Assembly: GCA_001643675.2 (NCBI GenBank)
Contig: LSRY02000008.1
Location: forward strand, 1,736,001 to 1,800,000
Reading direction: 5' to 3'
Length of the DNA stretch: 64,000 nucleotides
Source of the DNA: Monocercomonoides exilis PA203
Lineage: Eukaryota > Protista > Preaxostyla
Positions 21,561 through 64,000 of this stretch are shown here, in pieces. The number at the start of each line of letters is the position of its first letter. The first letter of the stretch is position 1. Position numbers and translations under genes: made by a program. The notes under the pieces are model-generated. The model worked only from the letters and a program-made list of their open reading frames with translations, did no database searches and was not told the DNA's origin.

Positions 21561-21621
21561 CTTGAAAAGGTGTGCCCTCGTTAGTCAGAGCCCATCTTTT
21601 TTTTTTCATTATTTCCTTTTT

Positions 21622-21654
<33 letters not shown>

Positions 21655-21975
21655 ATTTTTTTTTTTTATTTTTTTTTTTTGATAAAAACAAACACCTTTT
21701 TAAATTATGCTTATGAAAGGATAACTTTCCAATAATTCAATAATTTCTTAACATAAATTTCATCACTATATTCAATCAATAAACCTTAATTAAATATTAA
21801 TTTATTAAAATACTATTTTTAACTTTGACAAAAGTCCTATCATTTTTTGAAAATTATCATCAAAATTTTCTTATTCATTTTTTTATGTTTAAGAAGCTTA
21901 ATTATCAGTGTCTCATTTTTATTATTTTTCATTTTTTAAAAGCTTAAAAACTGTGTGATTATTCATGTTCAATAT

Positions 21976-22231
21976 AAATGATAATTTATGAAATTATAAC
22001 TTTTTTCGGGGTGTTCATTTTTCTAAGCTTGTTTGTCATTGGGAAGAGATTTTGTATTCAAATTGAAAAATCATCAAAACTATTCCAAAAACAAATGTTT
22101 TCACTCAAATAAAGATGAAGATGTCTTCTATGAGTTTTTTCATTTTTCAGTGTTCTTTTGTTGATATCCAAGGAAAATTTTCGAACCGAAATTTTTGAAA
22201 GAAAAAAATTTGATATCAAAAATAATCACTA
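21976..22231 (+). mobile_element. ~256-bp MITE-like element, hybrid copy at the duplication/palindrome junction
   Basis: Left TIR matches the 33726 copy; the body is the inverse of the 22996 copy. Confidence 0.65.
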
Positions 22232-24305: not shown

Positions 24306-25936
24306 TCAATGATGTTTACATTGTGAGTCCGATATTTCCAAAGATGATGAATTCTCTCCTGTTCCAATAACTGAAATCTTCTTTGATCCAATCTCAATAG
24401 TTGTTGCTTCGCTTTGATGCTTCCCTTCCATTAATGTGATTGCCAAACTAATCTGCACCTCACACATCTCAAACGCCTTCTTCACTGTCAGACACGGATA
24501 TGTTTCATTTGCCCCACACAACTCAAAACTATCATTTCCATTCACCGAAACATATAACGTCTTGTCCTTCAGCCAATCCTTTTTTGATGTTTGATCAAAT
24601 GTCCAGGCACCTGCATTTGCATAATTGTGTGCATAGCACATTCTCTTGTCATCTGTGTTTGTGGTGTAGCATTCATAGAATGGATTTCCAGAATCCAAGT
24701 ACAAATTGTTATTATCGTAATATATTGCATCGTGCCCATATGGTGTGGATGCAGATCTACACTTGCAATCGTGAAAAAATAAGAAGAAGCAATATAGTTT
24801 ATTATCCGGTGCCGTTTCTCGATTTGGATGCAAACATAATCCACCTCCATTGGATAATGCAAAACATGAAATAAACTGAATGGTACTCATTTTGAATTGT
24901 GTCGCAGGAACGGTAACGCAATACATCCCTCCACCAATCGTATTTGTGACTGAGCATGAAGTGAAACTGCAGTCAAACACACACGCACTCTCCCCTTCCC
25001 CATTTTCTGTTGGAATGCATCCTGACCCTGAAACACTAAAACTGTACAATCGTAAACCACCACCTTCGCTGTTAGCTTTGCAATTCTTAAATTCGCACCC
25101 ACCGATCCGAACACATTCCAAAATCGAATAAGCATACATTCCTCCTCCGTAATGGTTTTGTGCTGTGCAAGCATTGAACACATTATTTTCGATATATACA
25201 GATTTGATTGTATGACATATAATCCCACCACCACGGCTGTACGCAAAACAATTATTAAACAGACAATGCGAAACTGAAAGTTCTCCAGAATTGAGATTGT
25301 ACATGAAAATGGCCCCTCCACTCGATTTTCCATCCGTCCATGAATCACTTTCTCCTGTTGTCCTCGATCCACTCCATTCGCACCAAGTGAATGTATTCGT
25401 TCCATTTTCTGTTTCGTTTTGTCTCCCTGGAGTCAACTTTCTGTCTGAAGTTCCTTCACAAACAACATTTCTTGTCCTTCAGCATTTAATAAAAGAGGTG
25501 TTTGAAGCAGTCAGAGAAGCCAAGGGATTGTTGAGGGAAGTGACAATCCCGCCATCATACGTATCACAAACTGATGAGAATGAGCAACTATTCATCAAAT
25601 ATGTGGTTTGGGATGAGGAAGTGGTAGAAGGCGAACATGCGTCATTTGCTGTTGAGATGTTGAAAAACGTGAGTTGTGAGAAGGAAACAAGGGGAATGAA
25701 GACTCATGAGAATAATTGGCAAAAAGAGGAGAAGTGCAACTCACACACAAAAATACTATCTTCGACGCTGTCTTCTCTTCCTCTGCCTCTTGGAGCAATC
25801 TGGCAAAATATTTAATAAATTCAAAATCCTTCTTCCCGCCTCTTCCGCTGCTTCTCAAAGGGATATCCATAAGAGAAAAGCATCTTTTTTCTTCAGTGCC
25901 ACCAAATGGATACGGAACTCCAATGTTATTTGTCAA
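24306..25936 (-). pseudogene. Beta-helix cassette 5 (type B)
   Basis: 376-aa ORF 24306-25436. The upstream framework continues but has an in-frame TGA at 25479-25481 (IKC*RTRN vs IKCCRARN). Ends with SSSLEISDSQCKHH. Confidence 0.85.
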
Positions 25937-28210: not shown

Positions 28211-29049
28211 ATCTTTAAATCCTCTTCTACACTTTCAGTCTCATCGTTTTCTTCATCTTCATCCCCTTCATCTACTTCATTTCCTTCATCGAATTCTTCT
28301 CTGTCATTATTTTCAAATGCATCTCCTCAACAAAGAAATTATATATTTTTTCACCCCTTCTTGGTCATTATCTTCTTCTTCTTCACCAAATCGTTTTGAA
28401 GGATATTTGTTGAAAGAGTTATTTGAGAAGAAGCAGAACAGGAGAATGGAAATAGGATGTTTTTTTGGAGAAGCAGAAGAGAAGCAAAGCTGTTGAATGA
28501 ATGATGGAAGATGGAGATGAGGGGAAATGGGTGCTTTTGCAGAAAGAAAAAATGATCTAGAGAAGAAGAAAGAAGAAAGAAGAAGAACAGAAGCAATGAA
28601 GAATAGAGATTGTCAAAGGCATGAACACATAATTTTTTTGAATAAAAGAAATAACATTTTATCAAACTTTTCTAATATATATTTTTATTTGAAATTAGGA
28701 TCTTTTTGGAAGAATATCTTCGTTGGTTAAAAGCGCGAGGGATGAGGAAAGATGGATTTTGAGGCGATCCCGGGAAGATGGCAGAAGGCAGGAAATGGAA
28801 TGGGCATAGATGAGTGAGCAAAGGGAAACATATGAAATGTGTGGAAAAGATGGGATTTGCGAAATGGAAAAGGTATTTTGAAAAGGGGGAGGGGAAGCGA
28901 TAAAAGATAGAGAGAAGAGAAATTGATGATAAGGCAGAAGGAGAAATTTGAGAAATAATTGAGAAGAAGAAGGCATTAATAAGAAAACAGATTGAAAACG
29001 GATGAAAGGCGAGGAAATGGAGGAAAAAGGAATTTGAAGATAGAATGTT

Positions 29050-30744
29050 TTGAGGAGCATTTGCAGAAGAGTGGGAAAAAGGGAAGAGGATGAAAAGTTT
29101 GTTGTGGGGATGGGGAAGGATATTGAGGCAGGGGCATTTGATGTGAGTGGGAGCATTGGGGCGTTGACAAACATCACATTGAAAGGATGGAGAAGAGGGG
29201 GAGAGATATACTCGGGAAGGCTGTTTGGAGGGAAGGGATATGGAGGGGAGAAGGGTGGAGATGAAGAGAAAGGAGGAGAAAGAGGAGAAGGAGGCAGAGG
29301 AAGAGGAAGAAAAGGAGATGGATATGGAGAAGGTATTGAAGGGAGTATTTCGGTGAGTGAATCACGATTCTCTTCTTTTTGTGTCTCATCAGCCCCATTC
29401 CTGTCATCCCCTTCAATACCCCTTGTATCCCTCTCCAAACTCACATTTTTCAACATCTCAACAGCAAATGATGCATGTTCACCTCCAACCACTGCATCAA
29501 TCCAAACCTCTTGTTTTATGAACAGTTGTTCATTTTCGTCTGTTTGTGATGCATATGATGGCAGGATTGTTCATTCCCTCAACAATCCCTATGCCTCTTT
29601 AACTGCCTCAAATACCTCGTTTGTTGGATGTTATCGGACAAGAAATGTTGAATGCAGTGGAACAGCAGAGGTTCCTTTGAAGCCAGACAGACAGAACGAA
29701 ACATTCAATGGAGCTAATTCATTCACTTGGTGCGAATGGAATGGATCGAAAACATCAGGAGAAAGTGATTCATGGACGGATGGAGAATCGAGCGGAGGGG
29801 CAATCTGTGTGAATGGTTTATCATCTGCCTCTGTGTCTGTTTCCCATTGTATATTTAATAATTGTTTTGCATACAGTCGTGGAGGGGGAATAATGTGCGC
29901 AAGCATAAAAGAAGTTAAAATAGAGAACAACTCATTTAATGCATGCACAGCTCAGAATCATTATGGGGGTGGAATGCTTATTTATGCGATTTCATTGTGT
30001 GCTCGAATCAGCGATTGTGAATTCCAGAATTGCAAAGCAAATAGCTATGGAGGAGGGCTTTATCTTAATAATTTTAATATTTCAGGAACCGGATGCATTG
30101 AAGCAGAAAATGAAGGAGGAGAGAGTGCGTGTGTGTTTGACTGCAGTTTCACTTCATGTTCGGTTACAAATTATTATGGTGGAGGCATGCGTTGTTACAA
30201 TGTTCCTAATCAATTCAAAATGAGGAGCATTCAATTTATTTCATGTTCAGCATTAAGAGAGGGAGGAGGATTATTATTACAGCCAAATCGAGAAACAATA
30301 CCAAATGATGGAATTCATTGTTATTTTTTGTTCTTCCATGAATGCAGCTGCAGGGATGCAAATAATCCACGTGGGCATGACGTTGAATATGTTGATTATT
30401 ACAATCTGTATTTGGAATCAGGAAATCCATTTTATGAATGTTACACCACAAACACAGATGAGAAGAGGATCTGCTTTGCATACAATTATGCAATTGCAAA
30501 TGTTTGGACATATGACGAAATATCAAAAAAGGATTGGCTGAAGAGAGGGATTCTCAATCGATTTGTGGCAGTGAGTGGAGGAAACGCAGAAGAGTTGTGT
30601 GGATTGGATGAGTCAAGTGCATGCAGAACCATTGGTGTTGCAGTTGAAAAGAGCGTGATTCAAGTGAGCCTGTCAGTCACGCTGATGGGAGGGGATCACA
30701 CAAGCGAGACAACAACTATTGAGATTGGAACAAAAAAGATTTAA
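29050..30744 (+). CDS. Beta-helix cassette 6 (564-aa open frame, type A), no ATG-led signal peptide
   Basis: Uninterrupted ORF (TTG start in the track) with a Gly/Glu-rich segment and the full repeat domain. It stops at TAA where paralogs have Ser (KKI*VIG). Confidence 0.85.
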   Translation: MRSICRRVGKREEDEKFVVGMGKDIEAGAFDVSGSIGALTNITLKGWRRGGEIYSGRLFGGKGYGGEKGGDEEKGGERGEGGRGRGRKGDGYGEGIEGSISVSESRFSSFCVSSAPFLSSPSIPLVSLSKLTFFNISTANDACSPPTTASIQTSCFMNSCSFSSVCDAYDGRIVHSLNNPYASLTASNTSFVGCYRTRNVECSGTAEVPLKPDRQNETFNGANSFTWCEWNGSKTSGESDSWTDGESSGGAICVNGLSSASVSVSHCIFNNCFAYSRGGGIMCASIKEVKIENNSFNACTAQNHYGGGMLIYAISLCARISDCEFQNCKANSYGGGLYLNNFNISGTGCIEAENEGGESACVFDCSFTSCSVTNYYGGGMRCYNVPNQFKMRSIQFISCSALREGGGLLLQPNRETIPNDGIHCYFLFFHECSCRDANNPRGHDVEYVDYYNLYLESGNPFYECYTTNTDEKRICFAYNYAIANVWTYDEISKKDWLKRGILNRFVAVSGGNAEELCGLDESSACRTIGVAVEKSVIQVSLSVTLMGGDHTSETTTIEIGTKKI

Positions 30745-35029: not shown

Positions 35030-36718
35030 TCACAATTCTGTTTCACAAAACTGCAGCCGTGTAATATTCGTGTCTTTGATCTCCACACCAACCATCGACA
35101 GTTGTGACAGCACCACCACAAACACTGACGAAGACATCACATAGCCTCCAGTTTTACTCGTTGTGATCACAACATCCTCCAATGAGAGTGACCCACTCCC
35201 ATCAGACACCACAACCACACTCGGAGAAGAAGGATTTGCACTTGAGTTGCAGTCAACCTTCATGTGCAATAAACCAAGATGACCTGTTGACACACTGAAT
35301 AGAATTCCTACCGATGAAAGTGCCCCTGTTCCAATCAAACTTTTATCTTTGCCTTTCCCAATGACAGAAATCTTCTTTTCTCCAATCTCAATTGGTGCCA
35401 CCTCGCTTTGATGATTCCCTTCCATCAGCGTGATTGCCAAACTAATCTGTATTTCACACATCTCAAACGCCTTCTTCACTGTCAGGCACGGATTTGATTC
35501 ATTTGCTCCACATGACTCTAAATTGTCATTCCCACTCACAGAAACATAAATCGTCTTGTCCTTCAACCAATCCTTCTTTTCCGTGTGCTGATATGCCCAA
35601 GATCCTGAACTGGAATAGTTATAAACATAACATATCCTTTTATCATTACTGTTTGTGGTGTAGCATTCATAAAATGGGTTTGAGTGTAAATGTGAACTGT
35701 AATAGTCCAGATAATATACATCGTGTCCATATGGTGTTGAAGTTGTTCTGCATTTGCATTCATGGAAGAACAGGAAATAACAATAGAATCCATCATCAGG
35801 CTTTTCTGTTTTTTCTGGTCTGAAGCATAATCCTCCTCCATTTGCAGCTGTTGAGCATGAAATAAACTGAATGCTCCTCATTTTGAATGCAATTGGGATT
35901 CCATAGCAACGCATGCCTCCGCCAACCGTATTAACAACTGAGCAAAAAGTGAAATTGCAGTCAAATACGCACGCACTCTCACCATTATCATTTGCTGCTG
36001 GAATGCATCCAGTTCCTGAAACGTTAAAATTGTTAAGATTAAGACCACCTCCGCGTTCTCTTGCCATGCAATTCTGGAATTCACACCCGCTGATCCGAAC
36101 ACATGTTGAAATAGTAAAAACGAACACCCCTCCTCCAATCCATGTTTCAGAAGCACAAGCATTAAATGTGTTATTCACAATCTCAACTGATTTAATGCTA
36201 TAGCATGAAATCCCTCCGCCTGCGTAATACGCAACACATCCCTTGAATGCACAATGCGAAACTGAAACAGTAGCAGACGATTGACCGAACATGAATATTG
36301 CGCCACCGTTCGAAGTGCCATCGGAATATGTTTCACCTTTTCCTGTTGCCTTCGATTCACTCCATTCACACCAAGTGAATGAATTAGTTCCATTGTCAGT
36401 AATGTTCTGCCTCCCTGGCTGTTTCTTATTATCTGCAGTTCCAGTGCATTCAACATTCCTTGCACGACAACACCCAACGAATGAGGTGTTTGAGACAGTC
36501 AAAGAGGCCAATGGACTGTTCAAAGAAGGAACAATTCCGCCATCATATACGTCACAAACAGACGAAAATGAGCAACTATTCATAAAACTTGATGTTTGGG
36601 ATGAGGAAGTGGTAGAAGGTGAATATGCCTCATTTGATGTTGAGATGTTGAAAAATGATAATTTGGAGAGAGAAGCAAATGGCATCGAGGGAGTTGAGAG
36701 GAATGGAGTTTGACTCAC
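35030..36718 (-). CDS. Beta-helix cassette 7 (562-aa open frame, type B, extended 3' end)
   Basis: Uninterrupted ORF. A deletion at the 5' border removes HFSSFCVSSA and disconnects it from the leader. Continues past SLIGTGALSS into LFSVSTGHLGLLHMKVDC. Confidence 0.85.
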   Translation of the reverse strand: MSQTPFLSTPSMPFASLSKLSFFNISTSNEAYSPSTTSSSQTSSFMNSCSFSSVCDVYDGGIVPSLNSPLASLTVSNTSFVGCCRARNVECTGTADNKKQPGRQNITDNGTNSFTWCEWSESKATGKGETYSDGTSNGGAIFMFGQSSATVSVSHCAFKGCVAYYAGGGISCYSIKSVEIVNNTFNACASETWIGGGVFVFTISTCVRISGCEFQNCMARERGGGLNLNNFNVSGTGCIPAANDNGESACVFDCNFTFCSVVNTVGGGMRCYGIPIAFKMRSIQFISCSTAANGGGLCFRPEKTEKPDDGFYCYFLFFHECKCRTTSTPYGHDVYYLDYYSSHLHSNPFYECYTTNSNDKRICYVYNYSSSGSWAYQHTEKKDWLKDKTIYVSVSGNDNLESCGANESNPCLTVKKAFEMCEIQISLAITLMEGNHQSEVAPIEIGEKKISVIGKGKDKSLIGTGALSSVGILFSVSTGHLGLLHMKVDCNSSANPSSPSVVVVSDGSGSLSLEDVVITTSKTGGYVMSSSVFVVVLSQLSMVGVEIKDTNITRLQFCETEL

Positions 36719-41802: not shown

Positions 41803-41834
<32 letters not shown>

Positions 41835-45637: not shown

Positions 45638-47143
45638 CTAGCTTCCGCAAGCTGAAATGCAAACCAATTTGTCTTTCAGCCAATCCATTTTCGTTGTTTG
45701 GCCAAAAACCCAAGAACCTGAACTCGAATAATAATACACATAGCACACCCTCTGATTATCAGTGTTTGTCGTGTAACATTCATTGAACGGATTTCCAGAA
45801 GACAAAAAAACATTGAATTGATCATAATATATCGCATCGTGACCATATGGCGTATTTGCAGAGCACTTGCATTCATGAAAGAACAGAAAATAACAATAAA
45901 AATAATTGGTTGGAACTGCTGTGTTTCTGGATTCAAAATACAATCCCCCTCCATTTGCTGTTGCTGAACATGAAATTAACTGAATGCTCCTCACTTTGAA
46001 TGCAGCAGGAACAGTGTTGCAATACAGCCCTCCGCCCCATGTGCTTATTGTTGAGCACGAAGTGAAATTACACTCAAACACACACGAGCTCCCTCCTTCT
46101 CCATCTTCTTCCCCGATGCACCCTGATCCAGGCACACTGAAATTGAACAACCTCAACCCTCCCCCATCGTGGTGAGCCTTGCACATCTGGAAGTCGCACC
46201 CACTGACAAGGGCACATGAACTTATTTGGTAAGCATACACCCCTCCCCCGCCAAAGTTATGCGCTGTGCACGAATTGAACACGTTGCTCACAATCTTGAT
46301 CGTCTTGATTGCGTGGCACATGATTGCTCCCCCATGGTAGAATGCAGTGCAATCATTGAATGAGCAATGAGATACAGATAGTTCTCCAGAATTGAGATTG
46401 TACATTCGAATTGCTCCACCATTTGAAGCATCATCAGTATAATCATCTTTGTTTCCAGTCGTTTTCGACCCGTTCCACTCGCACCAAATAAACGAATTGG
46501 TCCCATTTTCTGTTTCATTTTGTCTCCCCGGAGTCAACTTTCTGTCTGATGTTCCTTCGCAAACAACATTTCTTGTTCTGCAACATCCAACAAACGAGGT
46601 ATTTGAGGCAATCAAAGAGGCAAAGGGGTTGTTGAGGGAAGGAACAATTCCGCCATCATACACATCACAAACTGATGAGAATGAGCAACTATTCATCAAA
46701 CATGTAGCTTGGGCTGACGTAGTGGTTGGAGGTGAACATGCCTCATTTGCTATTGAGATGTTGAAAAAAGTGAGTTTGGAGAGGGACATTAGGGGAATAG
46801 AAGGGGATGATAGGAATGGGGCTGATGAGACACAAAAAGAAGAGAATCGTGATTCACTCACTGAAATACTTCCTTCAATATCTTCTCCTTCTCCATCTCC
46901 TTCTCTTCCTCTTCCTCTTCCTATTTCTCCTCCTTCTCCTCCTTTTTCTTCACCTCCACCCTTCTCCCTTCCATATCCCTTCCCTCCAAATAGCCTGCCT
47001 GAATAGATCTCTCCCCCTCTTCTCCACCCTTTCAATGTGACGTTTGTCAACACCCCAATGCTTCCACTCACATCAAATGCCCCTGCCTCAACATCCTTCC
47101 CCATTCCCACAACAAACTTTTCATCCTCTTCCCCTTTTCTCAC
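45638..47143 (-). CDS. Beta-helix cassette 8 (501-aa open frame, truncated just after WLKDK)
   Basis: Uninterrupted ORF. Leader and Gly-rich part closely match cassettes 4/6, but the variable domain differs. Confidence 0.85.
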   Translation of the reverse strand: MRKGEEDEKFVVGMGKDVEAGAFDVSGSIGVLTNVTLKGWRRGGEIYSGRLFGGKGYGREKGGGEEKGGEGGEIGRGRGREGDGEGEDIEGSISVSESRFSSFCVSSAPFLSSPSIPLMSLSKLTFFNISIANEACSPPTTTSAQATCLMNSCSFSSVCDVYDGGIVPSLNNPFASLIASNTSFVGCCRTRNVVCEGTSDRKLTPGRQNETENGTNSFIWCEWNGSKTTGNKDDYTDDASNGGAIRMYNLNSGELSVSHCSFNDCTAFYHGGAIMCHAIKTIKIVSNVFNSCTAHNFGGGGVYAYQISSCALVSGCDFQMCKAHHDGGGLRLFNFSVPGSGCIGEEDGEGGSSCVFECNFTSCSTISTWGGGLYCNTVPAAFKVRSIQLISCSATANGGGLYFESRNTAVPTNYFYCYFLFFHECKCSANTPYGHDAIYYDQFNVFLSSGNPFNECYTTNTDNQRVCYVYYYSSSGSWVFGQTTKMDWLKDKLVCISACGS

Positions 47144-47813
47144 TCTTCTTCAAATGCTCCTCAAAACATTCGATCTTCAAATTCCTTTTTCCTCCATTTC
47201 CTCGCCTTTCATCATTTTCAATCAGCGTTCTTATAAAAATCATCTTCTTCTCAAATTCTTGTAAGACTCCTTCTTTGGTCATATCATCAATTTCTCTTCT
47301 CTCTATCTTTTATCGCTTCCCTTCCCCCTTTTCAAAATACCTTTTCCATTTCGCAAATCCCTTCTTTTCCACCCATTTCATATGTTTCCCTTTGCTCACT
47401 CATCCATTCCCATTCCATTTCCCGCCTTCTGCCATCTTCACGGGATCGCCTCAAAATCCATCTTTCCTCATCCCTCGCGCTTTTAACCAACGAAGATATT
47501 CTTCCAAAAAGATCCTAATTTCAAATAAAAATATATATTAGAAAATTTTGATAAAATGTTATTTCTTTTATTAAAAATAAAAAATATGAATTCAAACCTT
47601 GTATAATCTCCATTCTTCATTGCTTCTGTTCTTCTTTTTTCTGTCTTTTCTTCTTTCTCCTTCTCCAGATTATTTTTCCTTTCTGCAAAAGCACCCATTT
47701 CCCCTCATCTCATTCTTCCATCATTCAATCAACAGCTTTGTATCTCTTCTGCTCCTCCAAAAATAAACATTCCATTTCCATTCTCCTGTTCTGCTTCCAT
47801 TCGAATTGCTCCT

Positions 47814-49423
47814 TCAACTTGTGCTTTCATAAAATAGGCGAGGACCACTGAGAAGAGGAAGAAGTGGAAGATGATAATAATTGTTAAGAAGAACAAATAG
47901 AATGAAAAAATGAAATCGACAATTAAGAGGAGTAAATGATGGCGAAGAAGGCGAAGAATACGAATTCACTTCTGTTCCAATCGTACTTTTCTCAATGCCT
48001 GTCCCAACAACAGAAATTTTCTTTGTTCCAATATCAATCGTTGTTGTCTCGCTTGTGTGATCCCCTCCCATCAGTGTAACCGACAGGCTCACCTGGATCA
48101 CGCTCTTTTCAACTGCAACACCAATGGTTCTGCATGCACTTGACTCATCCAATCCACACAACTCTTCTGCGTTTCCTCCACTCACAGCCACAAATCGATT
48201 GAGAATCCCTCTCTTCAACCAATCCTTTTTGATATTTGATCATACACCCAAGAATCTGAAGGATAATGTGCATAGCACACTCTCTTGTCATCTGTGTTTG
48301 TGGTGTAACATTCATAGAAAGGATTGTCTGAATTCAAAAAGATTTTGTAATAATCTAAGTATATCATATCGTGACCATATGGAACATTGGCCAAGCATTT
48401 GCATTCATGGAAGAAGAGGAAATAGCAATAAATTGTTTCATTTGGCGCTGTTTGTTTTGCTGGCTCCAAATGAAATCCGCCTCCCCTTGTCATTGCAGAA
48501 CATGAAATAAACTGCATGCTCCTCATTTTGAATTGATTAGGAACACCATAACAGTACATACCTCCTCCCCATGAGCCAGAAACTGAACATGATGTGAAAC
48601 TGCAGTCAAACACACACGCACTCTCCCCTTCTCCACTTTCTGTTGAAATGCATCTTGTCCCTGAAATATTAAAATTATCTAATTTTAACCCTCCTCCATA
48701 ATCAATCGCTTGACAGTTTTTGAACTCGCATCCACTCACCCGAGCACAAGTAGAAATGCCATACAAATAAACACCTCCTCCATATCGATTTGTGGAGACA
48801 CAACAATTGAAAGTGCTGCTTTCAATACCCACTGATTTGATCGTGTGGCACATTATCCCTCCTCCACCATAATATGACAAGCAGTCGTTGAATGAACAAT
48901 TCGAAACTGTAAGTGAACCAGACGTCAAGCCATACATAAATATTGCTCCTCCATTCGAGGCTTGTTTTGAATAATCTTCGCTCATTTCAGCAGCCTTCGA
49001 TCCGTTCCACTCGCACCAAATAAATGAATTTGCTCCATTGAATGTTTCGTTCTGCCTCCCAGGAGTCAACTTTCTATCTGCAGTTCCAATGCATTCAACG
49101 TTTCTTGCCCTGCAACATCCAACGAATGAGGTGTTTGAAACAGACAAAGAGGCATAGGGATTGTTGAGGGAAGGGACAATCCCGCCATCATACACATCAC
49201 AGACCGATGAGAAAAAGCAACTATTCATCAAACATGTGATTTGTGTTGACGTAGTGGTTGAAGACGAACATGCGTCATTTGCTGTTGAAATATTGAAAAA
49301 AATATGTTGGAAGAGAAAAATACAGAAAAAAGAGAAATGCAGTTCGCTCACTGAAGCACTTCTTTCTTTGCCTCCTTCTCTTCTCAATGCTTCTTGGTGA
49401 AATTTCACAAAATACCTCAACAT
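47814..49423 (-). pseudogene. Beta-helix cassette 9 (type A)
   Basis: ORFs 48215-49423 and 47814-48218 are separated by one missing base in a T-run (~48226-48230). The same lesion occurs in cassette 4 but not in its duplicate, cassette 6. Homology ends at IGTE (~47970). Confidence 0.85.
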
Positions 49424-50381
49424 GGTCGCATCCCTTTTTCCATCTTTTCTGCCCCTTCTTCATCGTCTGCTTTCCCCGTATCCCTTTTTCTTCTGTTGCA
49501 ATCTTCTGCTTGTTTTCAAAAATCCATTTTCTTTCATCGCTTTAATTGGCATTCGTAAAAAAATTCCAAGTACACAACAATACAAATATACAAGAAAAAT
49601 GAACGAAATAAAATCATTTATGAAATATATGAAAATCAGAAAAATAAGCATCAAGGCATAACCTTTGTGCAAGAAAAAAATAAAACAAAATAAAACAAAA
49701 CATACAATAAACCTTTTTATTCAATTTTTTTTTCGCTTACTCTTTCCAATTCGTCGTTTCTTCTTCTTCTTTTCCTCCTCCTCCTCCTCCTCTAAATATT
49801 GCTCCTTTTTGCTAACACACCCGCCTGCTCCATCTCTGCCGGCGATCCCGATGCCAATAGCATTTTCCCCATTTTGCTCAAAAGGAAAGAAAAGAAAATA
49901 GTCAAAGTCCAGTCCTCAGATTCCCTGATTCAAAAAACTTCAACAACTTGATTCCAATAAATAGATCAGAATGGCGAAGAAGGCAAAGAAGTAATTATTG
50001 AAGAAGTATTGAACGACAAATAGAAGGAGATGATAAAACTGATGAATCAGGAGAAGTGGATGATGATGATGTTGTTGTTGATGATGATGACCAAGAAGAA
50101 GTTATTTTAAAAATTATTTACAAAAAAGTTAGTGATTATAAATGAGCATTTGACAGCACCTTCACAGTTAGCAGCTCCAAGTGCTCCACCTCTATCTTTC
50201 TACTCCTCCTTCTTCGTTGTCTCAAAATCTTGCCAGGCAAAAATAATAAGAGAAGGGAAATTGAAAATAAGACGCTTGCAGATTTAAAGTTGAAGTGAAA
50301 TGAATTGAAATAGCCAAGGAACAATTTTTAGAAGAAAAATTGCATGAAGAAAATAAAATGAGCAGAAGAAGATGAGAAGGA

Positions 50382-51800
50382 TTAACGGCTAAAATTCGCT
50401 CCTGTTCTAATTGAACTCTTCTCTTTGCCTGTCCCAATGATTGAAATCTTCTTTTCCCCAATCTCAACTGTTGTTGCCTCACTCACATGATTCCCTTCCA
50501 GCAGCGTGACTGTCAAGCTAATCTGCACCTCACACATCTCAAACGCTTTCTTCACTGTCAGACACGGATATGTTGTATTTGCCCCACAAAGTGGAGTAGT
50601 ATCATTCCCATTCACAGAAACATATATCGTCTTGTCCTTCAGCCAATCCTTCTTTTCCGTGTGCTGATAAGACCAAACACTTGCATTTGCATAATTGTAT
50701 GCATAGCACACTCTCTTGTCATCTGTGTTTGTGGTGTAGCATTCTTTGAACGGATTGTCTGAAGATAAAAAGACACTGTAGTAATCATTATACATAACGT
50801 CATGACCGTAAGAGGGGTTGTTATAACATTTGCACTCGTGGAAGAAAAGGAAATAACAATAGATTCCATCATCAGGTGCTGTTGGCCTGTTTGGATACAA
50901 TCTCATTCCTCCGCCCTCTTGCCGTGCTGAACATGAGATAAACTGCATGCTCCTCATTTTGAATGCAACTGGAACAGCAGCACAATACATACCTCCGCCG
51001 TAATAATTTGTAACCGAGCACGAAGTGAAACTGCAGTCAAACACACACGCACTCTCCCCTTCTCCATTTTCTGTTGGGATGCATCCTGTTCCTGAAACAT
51101 TAAAATTGTTAAGATTAAGACCACCTCCATAGCTATTTGCTTTGCAATTCTGGAATTCACAATCGCTGATCAGAACACATGATGAAATCGTATAAATAAG
51201 CATTCCACCCCCATAATGATTCTGAGCTGTGCATGCATTAAATGAGTTGTTCTCTATTTTAACTTCTTTTATGCTTGCGCACATTATTCCCCCTCCACGA
51301 CTGTATGCAAAACAATTATTAAATATACAATGGGAAACAGACACAGAGGCAGATGATAAACCATTCACACAGATTGCCCCTCCGCTCGATTCTCCATCCG
51401 TCCATGAATCACTGCTTCCTGTTGTTTTCGATCCGTTCCACTCGCACCAAGTGAATGTATTCGGTCCATTGTCAGTAATGTTTTGCCTCCCTGGATTCAA
51501 CTTTCCATCTGAAGTTCCTTCACATACAACGTTTCTTGTCCGGCAGCATCCAATGAATGAGGTGTTTGAAGCTGTCAAAGAGGCCAAGGGGTTGTTGAGG
51601 GAATGAACAATCCCGCTATCATAAACGTCACAAACTGATGAGAATGAGCAGCTGTTCATCATACACGTGGTTTGGGTTGACGTAGTTGTTGAAGGCAAGC
51701 ATGCATCATTTGCTGTTGAAATGTTGAAAAATGACAGGTGAGAGAGGGATACAAGGGGTATGGAAGGTGATGAAAGAAATGCTGTTGAAGATGAGATAAG
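50382..51800 (-). CDS. Beta-helix cassette 10 (438-aa ORF plus open upstream framework, type B)
   Basis: ORF 50382-51698. The upstream frame reads AFLSSPSIPLVSLSHLSFFNISTANDAC. Ends SSIRTGANFSR*. Confidence 0.85.
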   Translation of the reverse strand, partial: LISSSTAFLSSPSIPLVSLSHLSFFNISTANDACLPSTTTSTQTTCMMNSCSFSSVCDVYDSGIVHSLNNPLASLTASNTSFIGCCRTRNVVCEGTSDGKLNPGRQNITDNGPNTFTWCEWNGSKTTGSSDSWTDGESSGGAICVNGLSSASVSVSHCIFNNCFAYSRGGGIMCASIKEVKIENNSFNACTAQNHYGGGMLIYTISSCVLISDCEFQNCKANSYGGGLNLNNFNVSGTGCIPTENGEGESACVFDCSFTSCSVTNYYGGGMYCAAVPVAFKMRSMQFISCSARQEGGGMRLYPNRPTAPDDGIYCYFLFFHECKCYNNPSYGHDVMYNDYYSVFLSSDNPFKECYTTNTDDKRVCYAYNYANASVWSYQHTEKKDWLKDKTIYVSVNGNDTTPLCGANTTYPCLTVKKAFEMCEVQISLTVTLLEGNHVSEATTVEIGEKKISIIGTGKEKSSIRTGANFSR

Positions 51801-52024
51801 AGATTCGCATGTCGAAACGCTTCCATCTTCACCTCCTTATCTTCTCCTTGCTCTTGGAGTCATGTCGCAAAATATCTCAAGAAGCTCATATCCCATTGTC
51901 TTGCCTCTTCCACTTCTTTTGATTACATGCTCTCTTTAAATATCTTTTTCTCCGCTTTTCTCCTTTTGCCTTCTTTCCATATTCCATTCGCATTCTTCGC
52001 TTTTGAATGTTAGCACAAAAGTCC

Positions 52025-53990: not shown

Positions 53991-56014
53991 GAAAAGAAAG
54001 TCCTACTCGATGCATTGTGGCTGAATGGACATATAAAGGCAATGTGATTAAAAAAATATGTATTTCTGGTGTGGGGTGATGGAGCTGAGCTTTTGGAGGG
54101 GCAGGGTTACGAAGGGGAAAGGAGCGATAAAAGGATGTTTTTTGTGGAAAAGAGGTGTTTTCGTGAGATTTCAGAGGCAAAATGGATGTGTGGCGGATAG
54201 ATAGGGATGAGATTTAGAGGGGTTGTTTTTGAGATTTTTATCATTGGGAAGGTGTTGAGGCAGTGTTTATTATTTGAGAAAAGGAATTTGTTGTTGAGAA
54301 GGTGGGATAAGATGGAAAACAAGAAGGGCCGAAAATGAGTGGAGTGAATGGAATATATTTATTGGAGGAGAGGACGAGAAATGGAGAGATATGTGGAGGA
54401 GGTGTTATTTATTTTCAAATGCAGGGAGAGAGAGGAGGGCTCATATGAGGCGGAACAAGAAGAAAAATTTTTGTGAGTGCGTGTATAATTAGAGAGGGAA
54501 GCGGGGTTGAAGGGGAAAAAAAAGTGAGAGATATTTTTTTAATCTTTTTTAATTTTTTATTGAAAGGACCGTTTGGCCGCGCCTCTCATTTGCAGGACAA
54601 GTGTTGGAGGCGGATGCGGAGGAAGACGGGAAGAAGGAACATCAGCGCTGGCACTTTGCATTGGAGGTGTGGAGACAGAGGAAGATGAGGAGCTGACTAT
54701 GGGAGGTGTTTTGCAATGGAAAGAGACAGAAAAAGGATGGAGATATTTATATTTTTTTGGTTGGAAGAAGGGGAATGGGAGATGGGGAGACAGGGACTGT
54801 GATATTTGGCGTGGTGGTATTGTTGTTGTTTTGGGGGGAAATGGAGAGAAGAAGAAGAGGTTTTGCGAAAAGAGATGGGAAGGGGTTATTCAGATGGAAT
54901 CTTCTTCTTTACCAGTTTTTTATGGAATGGAGTTTGTGGAGGTTATTTGAGTGGAAGAAGAATAGAGGGTTGTGGTTTGATTAATATTTATTTGAGGAAG
55001 CAGAAAAGAAGCGAAGGCGGGAAAGATGGGCTTTGTTGGCAGAACGGAGAAATATTTAGAAAAGTAGAAAGAAAAAAGTCGCGAAGGGGGGTTGCTATAA
55101 AAGGCATGAATATATATTTTTTTATTACGATTTTTCATATATTATTTTTGTTGAAATCAGGGTTTTTGCAAAGATATTTTATGCAAATGAATGAACATGG
55201 AATATGGAAAGAGAGGATTAAAAATGCATAAAAGAAGTCTGGATGAAATAAATGAAGGGGCGCATAGAGGAGTGAGCTGGAGGAGAAATGCGAAATGAAA
55301 TGAAAGAAAGATAATTTTGAAGGTTTTGGAAGGAGTGCTGGACAAATGTGGTTGAAAGCAAAAAGAGAGAATGGGAAAATGATGAAAAGACAAAAAACAT
55401 GCACAAATAATTGAGAAGAAGAAAAGAAAGTGTGCCTAACAAAGAAGAAAAAGAAAGAGAAAGGAATTTTAGAGAAAACTTGATGTGAGAGGCTTTTATG
55501 AGGAAATAATTCAAAAATTTGGAGAAAGTTCTAAAAAGAAGATGGAAATATACCTCGGAATATTAATCAAAATAAAAGGCTTGAAGATAGAGGTCACACT
55601 CCGCGTCTATTTCAGAAGGGTTTGTTTTTGCGGGAGATAACGGAAGGGACGAGGAAGCGAGGAATGCGGTGATTCTTTGACAAAAGTTGGCAAGATTGAA
55701 GGATAAAAAAGGTATGATATTTTTATTAATTATATTATTTGACTATTTTTTATATGATTTATTGTTTTTTCTTTCTATTTGTTTGAACAAAATTGTTTTT
55801 GCTTGCGTTTTCTAAAACAGCGAGGAAAAGCAGAATAAGATCAGACGATAGAAAGTGAAGGGCAATGAGCAGAATCAGCGTGGGAAAGAGCTTTATAGGA
55901 TCATTAATAATAAAAAGGCATTGGCAGTGAAGGTTCTTTTACACATTTTTTAAACAAGATACTTTATATGAGCAGCGAAAAAGGAAGGAAAAGAGTTTTA
56001 GGGGTATTGGAATT

Positions 56015-57904
56015 ATGATGAAAATAATATTGAGAGGGGTTGGGAGAGGAAGGGATGAAGGAGGACAACGAGGTGGTGAAGAAAGAGGTGGAAAAGGAAG
56101 AGGAGAAGAAAGAGAAGAAGAAAGTGAAGGAGGTGGGAGTGTGTTTGTGTGTGAGTCGAATTTCTCATCTTTTTGTGTGTCTTCAGCCCCGTTTCTGGCA
56201 CCTCCTCTGACACGCCTTGTGACACTCACCCGACTGACCTTCTTCAACATCTCCACAAATCCACCAAAAATAACACATCTGGATGAAGGGCCGAGCCAAA
56301 GAGTGTTTCTGATGAGTGGATGTGAATTTGTGTTGGTATGGGATGTGTATGATGGGGGCATTGTCCCCTCGCTCAACAGCCCTTCATCGTCATTGGCTGC
56401 CTCGAACACCTCGTTTGTCAGGTGCTATCGCACTCAGAATGTTGAAGTCAATGGGAGTGAAGGGAATCCATCGAAACCAGCGAGACAGCAGATAGCAGAC
56501 AATGGGGCGAATTCGTTCACTTGGTGTGTGTGGAATGGGTCAAATACAACTGGAACAAACTCTGGTTATTCTTATGGAGATTCAAATGGCGGAGCGATTT
56601 ACATGTATAACAAGGCATCAGGAACACTTTCAGTGAAGTTTTGTTCGTTCAATGATTGTTATGCGCATTATGATGGCGGAGGAATATTGTGTGTTTCAAT
56701 CAATTCTATCAAGATTGAGAACAACTCGTTCAATGCTTGTACAGCAAAAAATTGGGCTGGAGGAGGATTGTATGCTAATTCGATTTCGTCATGTGTCAGG
56801 ATCAGCGGTTGCGAATTCAAGAGTTGCAAAGCGAAAAATTATGGAGGAGGTTTATGTCTCGATTCTTTTAATGTTTCTGGAACCAATTGTATTGGAACAG
56901 AAAGTGGGAAAGGGGAGAGCGCTTGTGTGTTTGAGTGTTTCTTCGCTTCGTGCTCTCTTACAAATTCTTATGGCGGAGGGATGTATTGTTATGGTGTCCC
57001 ATCTGCTTTCAAAATGAGGAGCCTCCAATTTATTTCTTGCTCAGCAGTGTCATATGGTGGAGGATTTTGGTTTAATCCAAGCCAATCAACAGCTCCAGGC
57101 AACAAGCTTTATTGCTATTTCTTCTTCTTCCACGATTGCAGTTGCAATGCCTCCACTCCATATGGACACGATGTAATGTATTACGATTATTACAATCTCT
57201 TCTCATCGAATAACCCATTCTGTGAATCGTATACAACGAATAGCGATGCAAACAGATTATGCTATGCTTATTATTCAGGCAGTTGGCAATATCAGCATAC
57301 ACAAAAGAAGGATTGGCTGAAGGAAGGGATGAAGGATCGGTATGTTGGGGTGAGCGGAGATGATACAAACAATCTGTGTGGGATGAGTGAGGCAGCGCCG
57401 TGCAAGACAGTGGGGCATGCAGTGGGGTCGAGCATGGCGCAGCTGAGCTCGACAATCACAGTGCTGGGTGGGAGGCATGTGAGCGAAGAGAAGACGATCA
57501 GTGTTGGGGGAAAGAAGATTTCTGTTTTGGGGAGAGGGAAGACGGTGAGTGTGATTGGGACAAGTGCGCTTTCTCCGCCTGCAACAACGCTGTTCAGCAT
57601 ATCTTCTGGCCAACTGGAGGTGGGGCATGTGGGGATCGATCACAACGCGACAAGAAGCTCATCGCCGAGTGTGTTTGTGGTGTCACTGGGGAGCGGGACG
57701 CTTTTGCTGGAGGATGTGGTGATCGACTCTTCGACATCAGGTGGGAATGGAATGACGAAGTGTGTGTTTGAAGTGGCACTGAGGCAGCTGAAAACGATTG
57801 ATGTGGAGATAGAAAATATGAAAGTGAGCCAACTTCTGTTTGTCGAACCATCATCAGTAGGATTGGCATTGAGAGAATATTATTTATTGTTTATTTTGTT
57901 CTGA
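56015..57904 (+). CDS. Beta-helix cassette 11 (629 aa, divergent subfamily, type C module)
   Basis: ATG-initiated uninterrupted ORF with family motifs. Module WLKEGMKDRYVGVSGDD..CGMSEAAPCKTV. No evident signal peptide or TM segment. Confidence 0.85.
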   Translation: MMKIILRGVGRGRDEGGQRGGEERGGKGRGEEREEESEGGGSVFVCESNFSSFCVSSAPFLAPPLTRLVTLTRLTFFNISTNPPKITHLDEGPSQRVFLMSGCEFVLVWDVYDGGIVPSLNSPSSSLAASNTSFVRCYRTQNVEVNGSEGNPSKPARQQIADNGANSFTWCVWNGSNTTGTNSGYSYGDSNGGAIYMYNKASGTLSVKFCSFNDCYAHYDGGGILCVSINSIKIENNSFNACTAKNWAGGGLYANSISSCVRISGCEFKSCKAKNYGGGLCLDSFNVSGTNCIGTESGKGESACVFECFFASCSLTNSYGGGMYCYGVPSAFKMRSLQFISCSAVSYGGGFWFNPSQSTAPGNKLYCYFFFFHDCSCNASTPYGHDVMYYDYYNLFSSNNPFCESYTTNSDANRLCYAYYSGSWQYQHTQKKDWLKEGMKDRYVGVSGDDTNNLCGMSEAAPCKTVGHAVGSSMAQLSSTITVLGGRHVSEEKTISVGGKKISVLGRGKTVSVIGTSALSPPATTLFSISSGQLEVGHVGIDHNATRSSSPSVFVVSLGSGTLLLEDVVIDSSTSGGNGMTKCVFEVALRQLKTIDVEIENMKVSQLLFVEPSSVGLALREYYLLFILF

Positions 57905-60454
57905 CCGCATAACACATTGACTGAAGAGAGAGAGAAAATAGAAATTCTGAGATTAACTTTTTAATATCATTTTTAGTGAAATGAAATATGATGAAGTGTT
58001 ATTTTGCATTGAGAATACGTATGCTTTACAAATTAGATTATTTTTTATGAATATGATTTGTTGATAAAAATTTTGTGGATGAGTGAAAAGATGGAATAAA
58101 TGAAAAAACACACAAAAAACAATGGTAAAATGATAAATTTTAAATGAATTCAAATATCTGTTTTTGACAAATTATTCCAAAAATGATTGTTATTTGAACA
58201 TTCTGATAAAAAAGTTTCAAAATATTTGAAAATAGAAACAAAAATCGAAAATGCTTTAATTATCAAGAAAATTGTATTTATCAATAATCATGATTTATCA
58301 TTCACTTTAGATTGCAATGATAATAAAATTATCATAGATTTATATATGAGTTGCTTCAGTCTTCTGATGATTGTGAATCATGAACACCACAGATAATCTT
58401 GTTTCAATGAGTATATTATTGTGAAGGTATTGAATATATTCAAACTCTGAAAAATATATTATTTTCATTTTTTATAAAAAAAATAATTTAAAAGATAAGA
58501 GAAGAAATTGTGTCAAATCATTTACAGGGATCTGTATTGTTTTCAAAAATTAATTCAAATAGACATTTGTTCATAAATGGGTGATTATTCTTGAAATCAA
58601 ACAATATTTCTGGGAGTGAATTATTTCCTTTCTCACTTTTCAATGAAGTTATTTGTGTTGAATTGAAATTGACACAGAGAATGGTGATGAACAATAAATG
58701 TGATGTTTTTTCATTTTTGAAAGTCATTTGATGTTGTTTTCCAACAATCATCAAAAATCTGAATTTATTGACAGAACGTGTCTGATCTCAAAAAAATGGA
58801 TTAGCCTTGAATAGCATAATCCTCAAGCCAATGAATCATTGTTGGAATGGTATCAACAATTTATCCTTAGAAAAAGACATTTCATCTTGAAACACTCAGC
58901 TCTTGCTCGTTTCTCAATGATCGTTTGTTGTTGAGTCTTTTCATCTCAAACAAATGTTTTGACATATTTTTCTTCTTTATTCCTATTTCTTATTTTCAGA
59001 TGTCTCAACTTTTGTTGAAAAAGTGGAAAATTGAGAAAAAATTGGAATGACAAACTGAAAAGGAAAGGGGGATGGGTATTATTCTTTTTGAAAAGAAACA
59101 AATATTCATTTTAATTTCTGAAATGATTTTTGTGATTTTGTTTATCTTTTTTGTTCCAAAATTTTCAAATATCACGATTAATCAGCAAAAATATTCTATT
59201 TTTCCACATCAAAGAATGATTTCATTTCACATTCTCTTTTATTGAAATGAATATTTGTTTCTTTTCAAAAAGAATAATACCCATCCCCCTTTCCTCTTCA
59301 GTTTGTCATTCCAATTTTTTCTCAATTTTCCACTTTTTCAACAAAAGTTGAGACATCTGAAAATAAGAAATAGGAATAAAGAAGAAAAATATGTCAAAAC
59401 ATTTGTTTGAGATGAAAAGACTCAACAACAAACGATCATTGAGAAACGAGCAAGAGCTGAGTGTTTCAAGATGAAATGTCTTTTTCTAAGGATAAATTGT
59501 TGATACCATTCCAACAATGATTCATTGGCTTGAGGATTATGCTATTCAAGGCTAATCCATTTTTTTGAGATCAGACACGTTCTGTCAATAAATTCAGATT
59601 TTTGATGATTGTTGGAAAACAACATCAAATGACTTTCAAAAATGAAAAAACATCACATTTATTGTTCATCACCATTCTCTGTGTCAATTTCAATTCAACA
59701 CAAATAACTTCATTGAAAAGTGAGAAAGGAAATAATTCACTCCCAGAAATATTGTTTGATTTCAAGAATAATCACCCATTTATGAACAAATGTCTATTTG
59801 AATTAATTTTTGAAAACAATACAGATCCCTGTAAATGATTTGACACAATTTCTTCTCTTATCTTTTAAATTATTTTTTTTATAAAAAATGAAAATAATAT
59901 ATTTTTCAGAGTTTGAATATATTCAATACCTTCACAATAATATACTCATTGAAACAAGATTATCTGTGGTGTTCATGATTCACAATCATCAGAAGACTGA
60001 AGCAACTCATATATAAATCTATGATAATTTTATTATCATTGCAATCTAAAGTGAATGATAAATCATGATTATTGATAAATACAATTTTCTTGATAATTAA
60101 AGCATTTTCGATTTTTGTTTCTATTTTCAAATATTTTGAAACTTTTTTATCAGAATGTTCAAATAACAATCATTTTTGGAATAATTTGTCAAAAAAACAG
60201 ATATTTGAATTCATTTAAAATTTATCATTTTACCATTGTTTTTTGTGTGTTTTTTCATTTATTCCATCTTTTCACTCATCCACAAAATTTTTATCAACAA
60301 ATCATATTCATAAAAAAATAATCTAATTTGTAAAGCATACGTATTCTCAATGCAAAATAACACTTCATCATATTTCATTTCACTAAAAATGATATTAAAA
60401 AGTTAATCTCAGAATTTCTATTTTCTCTCTCTCTTCAGTCAATGTGTTATGCGG

Positions 60455-62343
60455 TCAGAACAAAATAAACAATAAATAATATTCTCTCAATGCCAATCCT
60501 ACTGATGATGGTTCGACAAACAGAAGTTGGCTCACTTTCATATTTTCTATCTCCACATCAATCGTTTTCAGCTGCCTCAGTGCCACTTCAAACACACACT
60601 TCGTCATTCCATTCCCACCTGATGTCGAAGAGTCGATCACCACATCCTCCAGCAAAAGCGTCCCGCTCCCCAGTGACACCACAAACACACTCGGCGATGA
60701 GCTTCTTGTCGCGTTGTGATCGATCCCCACATGCCCCACCTCCAGTTGGCCAGAAGATATGCTGAACAGCGTTGTTGCAGGCGGAGAAAGCGCACTTGTC
60801 CCAATCACACTCACCGTCTTCCCTCTCCCCAAAACAGAAATCTTCTTTCCCCCAACACTGATCGTCTTCTCTTCGCTCACATGCCTCCCACCCAGCACTG
60901 TGATTGTCGAGCTCAGCTGCGCCATGCTCGACCCCACTGCATGCCCCACTGTCTTGCACGGCGCTGCCTCACTCATCCCACACAGATTGTTTGTATCATC
61001 TCCGCTCACCCCAACATACCGATCCTTCATCCCTTCCTTCAGCCAATCCTTCTTTTGTGTATGCTGATATTGCCAACTGCCTGAATAATAAGCATAGCAT
61101 AATCTGTTTGCATCGCTATTCGTTGTATACGATTCACAGAATGGGTTATTCGATGAGAAGAGATTGTAATAATCGTAATACATTACATCGTGTCCATATG
61201 GAGTGGAGGCATTGCAACTGCAATCGTGGAAGAAGAAGAAATAGCAATAAAGCTTGTTGCCTGGAGCTGTTGATTGGCTTGGATTAAACCAAAATCCTCC
61301 ACCATATGACACTGCTGAGCAAGAAATAAATTGGAGGCTCCTCATTTTGAAAGCAGATGGGACACCATAACAATACATCCCTCCGCCATAAGAATTTGTA
61401 AGAGAGCACGAAGCGAAGAAACACTCAAACACACAAGCGCTCTCCCCTTTCCCACTTTCTGTTCCAATACAATTGGTTCCAGAAACATTAAAAGAATCGA
61501 GACATAAACCTCCTCCATAATTTTTCGCTTTGCAACTCTTGAATTCGCAACCGCTGATCCTGACACATGACGAAATCGAATTAGCATACAATCCTCCTCC
61601 AGCCCAATTTTTTGCTGTACAAGCATTGAACGAGTTGTTCTCAATCTTGATAGAATTGATTGAAACACACAATATTCCTCCGCCATCATAATGCGCATAA
61701 CAATCATTGAACGAACAAAACTTCACTGAAAGTGTTCCTGATGCCTTGTTATACATGTAAATCGCTCCGCCATTTGAATCTCCATAAGAATAACCAGAGT
61801 TTGTTCCAGTTGTATTTGACCCATTCCACACACACCAAGTGAACGAATTCGCCCCATTGTCTGCTATCTGCTGTCTCGCTGGTTTCGATGGATTCCCTTC
61901 ACTCCCATTGACTTCAACATTCTGAGTGCGATAGCACCTGACAAACGAGGTGTTCGAGGCAGCCAATGACGATGAAGGGCTGTTGAGCGAGGGACAATGC
62001 CCCCATCATACACATCCCATACCAACACAAATTCACATCCACTCATCAGAAACACTCTTTGGCTCGGCCCTTCATCCAGATGTGTTATTTTTGGTGGATT
62101 TGTGGAGATGTTGAAGAAGGTCAGTCGGGTGAGTGTCACAAGGCGTGTCAGAGGAGGTGCCAGAAACGGGGCTGAAGACACACAAAAAGATGAGAAATTC
62201 GACTCACACACAAACACACTCCCACCTCCTTCACTTTCTTCTTCTCTTTCTTCTCCTCTTCCTTTTCCACCTCTTTCTTCACCACCTCGTTGTCCTCCTT
62301 CATCCCTTCCTCTCCCAACCCCTCTCAATATTATTTTCATCAT
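60455..62343 (-). CDS. Beta-helix cassette 12; inverted copy of cassette 11
   Basis: Mirror of 56015-57904. One frameshift at a G-run (~61991, 3 vs 4 bases), probably a sequencing error. Confidence 0.85.
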
Positions 62344-64000
62344 AATTCCAATACCCCTAAAACTCTTTTCCTTCCTTTTTCGCTGCTCATATAAAGTATC
62401 TTGTTTAAAAAATGTGTAAAAGAACCTTCACTGCCAATGCCTTTTTATTATTAATGATCCTATAAAGCTCTTTCCCACGCTGATTCTGCTCATTGCCCTT
62501 CACTTTCTATCGTCTGATCTTATTCTGCTTTTCCTCGCTGTTTTAGAAAACGCAAGCAAAAACAATTTTGTTCAAACAAATAGAAAGAAAAAACAATAAA
62601 TCATATAAAAAATAGTCAAATAATATAATTAATAAAAATATCATACCTTTTTTATCCTTCAATCTTGCCAACTTTTGTCAAAGAATCACCGCATTCCTCG
62701 CTTCCTCGTCCCTTCCGTTATCTCCCGCAAAAACAAACCCTTCTGAAATAGACGCGGAGTGTGACCTCTATCTTCAAGCCTTTTATTTTGATTAATATTC
62801 CGAGGTATATTTCCATCTTCTTTTTAGAACTTTCTCCAAATTTTTGAATTATTTCCTCATAAAAGCCTCTCACATCAAGTTTTCTCTAAAATTCCTTTCT
62901 CTTTCTTTTTCTTCTTTGTTAGGCACACTTTCTTTTCTTCTTCTCAATTATTTGTGCATGTTTTTTGTCTTTTCATCATTTTCCCATTCTCTCTTTTTGC
63001 TTTCAACCACATTTGTCCAGCACTCCTTCCAAAACCTTCAAAATTATCTTTCTTTCATTTCATTTCGCATTTCTCCTCCAGCTCACTCCTCTATGCGCCC
63101 CTTCATTTATTTCATCCAGACTTCTTTTATGCATTTTTAATCCTCTCTTTCCATATTCCATGTTCATTCATTTGCATAAAATATCTTTGCAAAAACCCTG
63201 ATTTCAACAAAAATAATATATGAAAAATCGTAATAAAAAAATATATATTCATGCCTTTTATAGCAACCCCCCTTCGCGACTTTTTTCTTTCTACTTTTCT
63301 AAATATTTCTCCGTTCTGCCAACAAAGCCCATCTTTCCCGCCTTCGCTTCTTTTCTGCTTCCTCAAATAAATATTAATCAAACCACAACCCTCTATTCTT
63401 CTTCCACTCAAATAACCTCCACAAACTCCATTCCATAAAAAACTGGTAAAGAAGAAGATTCCATCTGAATAACCCCTTCCCATCTCTTTTCGCAAAACCT
63501 CTTCTTCTTCTCTCCATTTCCCCCCAAAACAACAACAATACCACCACGCCAAATATCACAGTCCCTGTCTCCCCATCTCCCATTCCCCTTCTTCCAACCA
63601 AAAAAATATAAATATCTCCATCCTTTTTCTGTCTCTTTCCATTGCAAAACACCTCCCATAGTCAGCTCCTCATCTTCCTCTGTCTCCACACCTCCAATGC
63701 AAAGTGCCAGCGCTGATGTTCCTTCTTCCCGTCTTCCTCCGCATCCGCCTCCAACACTTGTCCTGCAAATGAGAGGCGCGGCCAAACGGTCCTTTCAATA
63801 AAAAATTAAAAAAGATTAAAAAAATATCTCTCACTTTTTTTTCCCCTTCAACCCCGCTTCCCTCTCTAATTATACACGCACTCACAAAAATTTTTCTTCT
63901 TGTTCCGCCTCATATGAGCCCTCCTCTCTCTCCCTGCATTTGAAAATAAATAACACCTCCTCCACATATCTCTCCATTTCTCGTCCTCTCCTCCAATAAA

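Follow-up and report, generated by a model that had tools for sequence, protein, structure and literature searches.

Our analysis of a 64,000-nucleotide window from the Monocercomonoides exilis PA203 genome (contig LSRY02000008.1, positions 1,736,001 to 1,800,000; "the window" denotes this whole stretch) indicates that a 222-bp tract, identical in otherwise divergent gene cassettes, probably arose through recent ectopic segmental gene conversion between non-allelic cassettes during break repair. Self-comparison of the window revealed twelve cassettes with mutual likenesses of 61-79%, except for two duplicate pairs (Table 1); given that cassettes 4 and 6, and likewise 11 and 12, are near-identical duplicates, ten of the twelve are independent. 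In the initial annotation, the tract in cassette 10 was described as the exact reverse complement of a segment of cassette 4, which was borne out over exactly 222 bases. It is also the exact reverse complement of the equivalent segment of cassette 6, and it can be extended in neither direction. Its 74 codons (SDSWTDG...GGGMLIY) correspond to residues 142-215 of a protein with predicted rungs at a period of ~28 residues, and perfect stretches of 12-16 bp lie directly 5' of it. The divergent patch followed by ~47 identical bases that had been reported next to it was found as a 21-bp patch and a second identical block. The clustering of six point changes seen in this patch has a P of about 2e-5 in 290 bp, and no third donor for it was found among 182 proteins. 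Beyond the tract, cassette 10 does diverge from cassettes 4 and 6 as first described, with 73% identity over the core, 77% in the 5' flank and 73-82% in the 3' flank, and with different leaders and C-modules.

Table 1. Cassettes, duplicated blocks and shared tracts in the window (window coordinates).
Feature	Position	Strand	Remark
Cassette 1	3271..4686	+	Upstream DNA common with cassette 10 (73-78%)
Cassette 2	9923..11747	-	31-aa variable-region identity with membrane-anchored MONOS_14007
Cassette 3	12439..14159	-	63-bp exact tract with cassette 1
Cassette 4	17401..19098	+	Same sequence as cassette 6 save for single-base homopolymer gaps
Cassette 5	24274..25790	-	Core 79% like that of cassette 3
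Cassette 6	29044..30744	+	Open frame, 566 aa
Cassette 7	35030..36718	-	Shares LNLNNFNVSGTGCIP with cassette 10
Cassette 8 with leader	45638..47818	-	79% like cassettes 4/6 over 2.1 kb
Cassette 9 (MONOS_12099)	47814..49459	-	89-bp exact tract with cassettes 4/6
Cassette 10 (MONOS_12100)	50382..51836	-	Open frame of 484 aa, stop at 50382
Cassette 11	55931..57904	+	More distant subfamily
Cassette 12	60455..62427		Mirror copy of cassette 11
8-kb block with cassette 4	13998..21994		Repeat with cassette 6 at 25730-33744
Palindrome with cassettes 11/12	54358..64000		Runs off the window end; arms at 54358-59059 and 59297-64000
222-bp tract, cassette 10	51192..51413	-	~2.6 predicted beta-helix rungs
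Tract copy, cassette 4	18022..18243	+	47-bp block at 18265-18311
Tract copy, cassette 6	29764..29985	+	47-bp block at 30007-30053
21-bp patch interrupting the shared stretch	51171..51191	-	6 differences
Second identical block, 47 bp	51124..51170	-	Common with cassettes 4/6; more conserved region

Chance is excluded as the source of the 222-bp identity. In a Sawyer-type run test of ten cassettes with 2000 permutations (cassettes 4 and 12 were left out as duplicates of 6 and 11), the run shared by cassettes 6 and 10 comprised 156 of 693 polymorphic sites; restricted to third positions it comprised 73 of 317, and the global P was 0.0005 in both cases. Ten cassette pairs reached a global P<0.05 on all sites, and only two, 6/10 and 1/3, did so on third positions. 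The tract falls in the most variable part of the cassettes, which is also the least conserved in the family (mean pS 0.67), and other cassette pairs average 62.5% identity over its columns. Sites private to cassettes 6 and 10 numbered 18 in 215 tract columns versus 3 in 844 columns outside, and pS between the two was 0 in the tract versus 0.43-0.44 in both flanks. Further, AU tests rejected the flank tree on the tract data (p-AU 3.5e-92) and the tract tree on the flank data (p-AU 0.0007). The joined flanks did not reject a clade of cassettes 6 and 10 (p-AU 0.19; 0.049 for the 5' flank alone), and hence the conflict between tract and flanks is mainly one of divergence, not of topology alone. 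The absence of silent differences in the tract, the mutual rejection of trees and the family-wide pattern described below back the recent segmental gene conversion that the initial annotation had proposed. Its scale of one to three rungs is apt as a description of the tract, while rungs as the unit of exchange are without support, and because the tract ends are fixed by the first mismatch, we do not claim rung-aligned breakpoints.

Two shorter peptides had been taken as further signs of such exchange. Both are present, but neither gives evidence of conversion. Specifically, LNLNNFNVSGTGCIP has cassettes 10 and 7 as its sole carriers among 122 proteins, but their DNA differs at 3 silent positions over the 45 bp, and this pair lies outside the 14 best pairs in the run test; SARQEGGG, shared by cassettes 10 and 3 with 4 silent differences, is common in the family (10 of 182 proteins). 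Longer exact tracts do connect cassettes 4/6 with cassette 8 (105 bp upstream of the core; 16927-17031 / 47441-47545) and with cassette 9 (in the C-module; 18827-18915 / 48097-48185).

Across the family, the 222-bp tract is unexceptional. We examined 111 members at the protein level, consisting of 110 entries that are identical in both annotation sources plus cassette 6, and left out single-source entries, all other window-only frames and rows with <85% core cover; an initial run of this test (75 of 5778 pairs) was set aside, as it mixed annotation versions. Under a column-permutation null, 44 of 6105 pairs passed, with patches of 26-115 aa, some of which reach the core end. Under a conservation-aware null, 60 of 6105 pairs passed, touching 58 of the 111 members, although these pairs are not independent events, and the pair of cassettes 6 and 10 ranked 22nd among them. 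Most of the sharing pairs (41 of 60) are between contigs, with same-contig pairs nonetheless enriched (19/719 versus 41/5386, P=3e-5). One quartet exposes the internal nature of such patches: the flanks of cassette 6 are 95% and 88% identical in amino acids to MONOS_14694, against 66% in the tract, and in the interior cassette 6 equals cassette 10 and MONOS_14694 equals MONOS_14690 (100% each), with nearly equal boundaries. Whatever the direction of transfer, this pattern implies at least two events, at least one of which placed an internal patch in a shared backbone. Short members are concentrated on four contigs (61 of 79), where 0 of 16 receptor-type members lie, and patch sharing was found in 9 of 1264 cassette-receptor pairs versus 46 of 3081 cassette-cassette pairs, counts that do not fix its direction. 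Only two cassette-receptor pairs were above the null maximum, and several are within a block conserved in the subfamily; the clearest case is a stretch of 31 aa common to MONOS_14007, cassette 2 and several other cassettes.

Two alternatives would leave the tract in place as real DNA and explain it by other means. That purifying selection held the segment identical is next to inconceivable: the cassette cores are under overall coding constraint (dN/dS 0.21-0.32), but the silent sites of the tract are identical too, in the segment least conserved in the family, and the identity of third positions refutes this reading. A duplication followed by two separate unequal crossovers, one stripping the 5' part and the other the 3' part so that an identical middle remained, is unlikely. 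Such a history would suit an array that carries tandem and inverted duplications together with modular leaders and C-modules, as well as the family patches that extend to the core end. However, both flanks of cassette 6 fit one gene, MONOS_14694, which would be a rare outcome of two independent crossovers; cassette 10 is inverted relative to cassettes 4 and 6, and crossovers between contigs, where most sharing pairs are found, would rearrange chromosomes.

We consider it very unlikely that polishing or collapse during assembly put the sequence of one cassette into the other. The cassette-10 protein is letter-for-letter the same in NCBI and EukProt, the latter apparently an older 454-based annotation, judging by its naming and by genes that differ between the sources, and the family pattern persists in entries identical across both. 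Specific to the tract, RNA of a second study gave a contig that bridges the junction at 51191/51192, having 57 and 88 bases on its two sides and agreeing with the window throughout. In three DNA short-read runs, all from one sample, the tract contig stops precisely at 51413, the point at which the two loci diverge, with about twice the depth (395.6, 21.3 and 139.7) of the cassette-10-specific medians (~209, 11 and 69), contig depth being a poor measure of copy number. No variant letters appeared in 29500-30160 among the matches listed, nor did pieces that bridge the tract junctions of cassettes 4/6; no read or contig spanning the whole tract was found in the short-read DNA and RNA data, and the cassette-6 frame is absent from the protein collection. 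In favour of an artefact are the homopolymer indels between the blocks carrying cassettes 4 and 6, a hole at 51208 in two of the DNA runs, the poorer polishing of multi-copy regions stated in the assembly paper (PMC8767320), and a disagreement with short reads elsewhere in the window. There, in 34393-35000, six bases (34503-34570) and one or two gaps differ from full-depth short-read contigs, and the window is hence unpolished at that place. RNA coverage has gaps at 51305-51371 and over most of cassette 6, and one RNA run gave low depth over cassette 10 and part of cassette 6 and none over 30788-34651.

Between the blocks of 8 kb around cassettes 4 and 6 there are 23 indels, at homopolymer runs, and no substitutions; the blocks could represent either a real duplication or an assembly duplicate. 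Depth over the duplicated block was 48-356 (X2) and 3-18.6 (X3), against 283 and 6.5-10.1 for pieces outside it. We dropped the doubled depth of the tract as proof that cassettes 4 and 6 are one locus, as depth is noisy and the cassette-10 gene has two identical named copies (MONOS_12100c1/c2), so that a tract to cassette-10 ratio of 4:2 fits as well as 2:1. These two copies also suggest that the arms of the palindrome at 54358-64000 are longer than the part seen here, and cassette 10 is likely duplicated beyond the window too, via this palindrome. The palindrome arms measure 4.7 kb or more, show 3 indels but no substitutions relative to each other, and enclose a 237-bp spacer with an imperfect inverted repeat at its edges; either genuine amplification of an inverted repeat or an artefact of the fold-back type could account for the palindrome.

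Other features of the window bear on how the array is built. A tandem duplication (12638-22240 / 24358-33989) starts within cassettes 3 and 5, the cores of which are 79% alike, and the adjoining 8 kb are identical, which places the junction of a crossover or of a conversion near 13998/25730. A small palindrome (21989-23238) with exact arms of 581 bp and an 88-bp spacer marks the right end of this duplicated block, and the outer 260 bp of the palindrome are found again at 42724-42988 (92-93%). Several cassettes are preceded by a shared upstream element that lacks a long open frame and is 70-78% alike between copies (502-2393, 15749-16456 and 53011-55020); the duplicated unit exceeds the coding core. 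The window also contains ~1.2 kb of low-complexity, hexamer-like repeats (40686-41910, T-rich on the + strand) and a tandem array with a period of 15 bp (37935-38091).

As for what the cassettes encode, cassette 10 has 171 relatives of similar length, and all those named among the 120 best of the 171 come from M. exilis. No Pfam family was found in the four cassettes searched, and neither a membrane anchor nor a kinase was found in the frame of cassette 10. A non-standard reading (genetic code 6) is unnecessary, as the standard code yields the named proteins. Longer relatives comprise 61 proteins, 20 of which carry PF07714. The complete ones, of ~2,300 aa, have a hydrophobic N-terminus, the cassette core at residues of about 275-615 and one transmembrane segment near residue 1,860, and cassette 10 aligns solely with the N-terminal part of these long proteins. 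In 18 of the 19 PF07714 proteins scanned, a single transmembrane segment precedes the kinase-like domain. By these alignments, the cassettes correspond to the N-terminal tip of predicted single-pass receptors of ~2,300 aa, of which they are truncated copies. The Pfam kinase match covers only positions 160-258 of the profile, the C-lobe, in 5 of 5 proteins, and an HRD/DFG-type pattern occurs in 0 of the 19 PF07714 proteins, a combination that makes the full-length relatives likely receptor pseudokinases. Tyrosine-kinase-like genes have been reported as the largest gene family of M. exilis (PMC6759080) and as overlapping the unclassified repeats of its genome (PMC8767320). Among proteins counted as tyrosine-kinase-like, the full-length members P0129-P0175 match the kinase C-lobe only and lack catalytic motifs, and many may be pseudokinases. 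Distant long relatives in Streblomastix strix (P0178 and P0179) imply that the domain is older than M. exilis. Many cassette frames are cut short, and the cassettes may encode short products that are functional, serve as donors, or be decaying copies that conversion renews.

The cassette core is predicted to fold as a right-handed parallel beta-helix. A structure model built from 109 sequences had a mean pLDDT of 67, mostly 75-97 over residues 111-380, and in VIA-align it matched right-handed beta-helices (AlgG, polysaccharide lyases and tailspikes) with Z up to 19.3, an rmsd of 3.9 and 247 aligned residues; Foldseek gave no match to the model at E<=0.001. Six rung markers, five GGG and one GGAI, are located at residues 152, 181, 209, 237, 280 and 308. 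The least conserved residues directly precede each GGG, which would fit a stacked variable face. Such a beta-helix might bind glycans, although likeness of fold does not by itself reveal a function.

The preferred reading, a presumably non-reciprocal conversion between cassettes, judged from a single genome, can be put as a sequence of steps. A DNA break in one cassette would be repaired by homologous recombination from a paralogue 70-80% alike, with strand invasion and resolution in the conserved motifs flanking the variable rungs, so that, in the variable beta-helix face, 30-110 codons would be overwritten and both flanks kept. The tract ends do lie within or beside conserved motifs, as homology-driven repair predicts. 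The 222-bp and 47-bp blocks would then probably be one 290-bp event, either discontinuous or micro-patched later. M. exilis is reported to be monoploid and to lack non-homologous end joining, with a fairly complete homologous-recombination pathway (PMC6759080), circumstances that would push repair to ectopic templates. As the cassettes appear to copy the distal receptor domain, conversion among them would reshuffle a predicted ligand-binding surface.

The mechanism is already known from the mosaic variant surface glycoproteins (VSGs) of Trypanosoma brucei; for this M. exilis family we have not found it in print. Searches on Monocercomonoides gene conversion, oxymonad receptor or tyrosine kinases, Blattamonas and oxymonad antigenic variation returned no account of this exchange, "gene conversion" has 0 matches in the main text of PMC6759080 (its supplementary kinase tables may bear on domain architecture), and PMC10703272 gave no match to terms on this subject. 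The passages of PMC6759080 and PMC8767320 that treat the tyrosine-kinase-like family mention no ectodomain, truncated arrays or recombination. In T. brucei, experiments produced RAD51- and BRCA2-dependent templated patches at ~20% mismatch, and the likeness extends to short patches (<300 bp), members ~20% apart, short perfect-match borders and donors, fragments included, that are spread genome-wide (PMC13233330). By analogy, the exchange described herein would work as VSG-type segmental conversion, while membership in antigenic variation goes beyond the data. In contrast to VSGs, the M. exilis patch joins two truncated cassettes and is known from sequence rather than from a single expression site, silencing or switching; further, M. 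exilis is a gut endobiont whose full-length genes are receptor-like and not a coat.

Other systems share parts of this arrangement. The functional pseudogenes of Anaplasma msp2 are likewise clustered partial genes with conserved ends and a variable middle, but they are bacterial, and for them it is established that sequence passes into one expression locus (PMC2789410). The Entamoeba EhTMKB1 receptor kinases form a gut-protist family that is mostly truncated, with 6 of 35 at full length (PMC2880585), whereas in M. exilis the ectodomain is predicted to form a beta-helix and is joined to a degenerate kinase domain. Transmembrane adenylyl cyclases of Trichomonas, another receptor-like metamonad family, include many pseudogenes, which have been put forward as potential sources for conversion; one clear conversion was described there, in genes that are mostly dispersed (PMC2914791), whereas in M. 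exilis more than half of the tested members have patches and the truncated copies are arrayed. Chlamydial and trichomonad Pmp adhesins resemble the predicted fold, with a right-handed beta-helix, a glycine-rich motif per rung and anchored full-length members (PMC6701047). Unlike these, the M. exilis rungs mostly bear GGG, not GGA(I/L/V) and FxxN, the full-length proteins have a cytoplasmic kinase-like tail, and the four cassettes searched gave no Pfam match.

A lone conversion tract in a multigene family would be ordinary, and it is the setting that gives this one its interest. Part of the unclassified repeats of the M. exilis genome appears to consist of arrays of truncated receptor tips, with frequent swapping of rungs within and between contigs, and gene trees of this family are consequently not meaningful. 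We raise only tentatively, as possible but doubtful, the idea that these truncated arrays constitute a donor archive, itself recombining, whose templated patches would diversify the distal beta-helix in receptor pseudokinases that number in the hundreds and lie dispersed. Such an archive would be a recognition generator akin to immunoglobulin pseudogenes or VSGs in a mitochondrion-free gut protist, with bacterial or host glycans perhaps as targets. If patches do reach full-length receptors, this culturable oxymonad would possess a diversifier of surface recognition comparable to the VSG mosaics.
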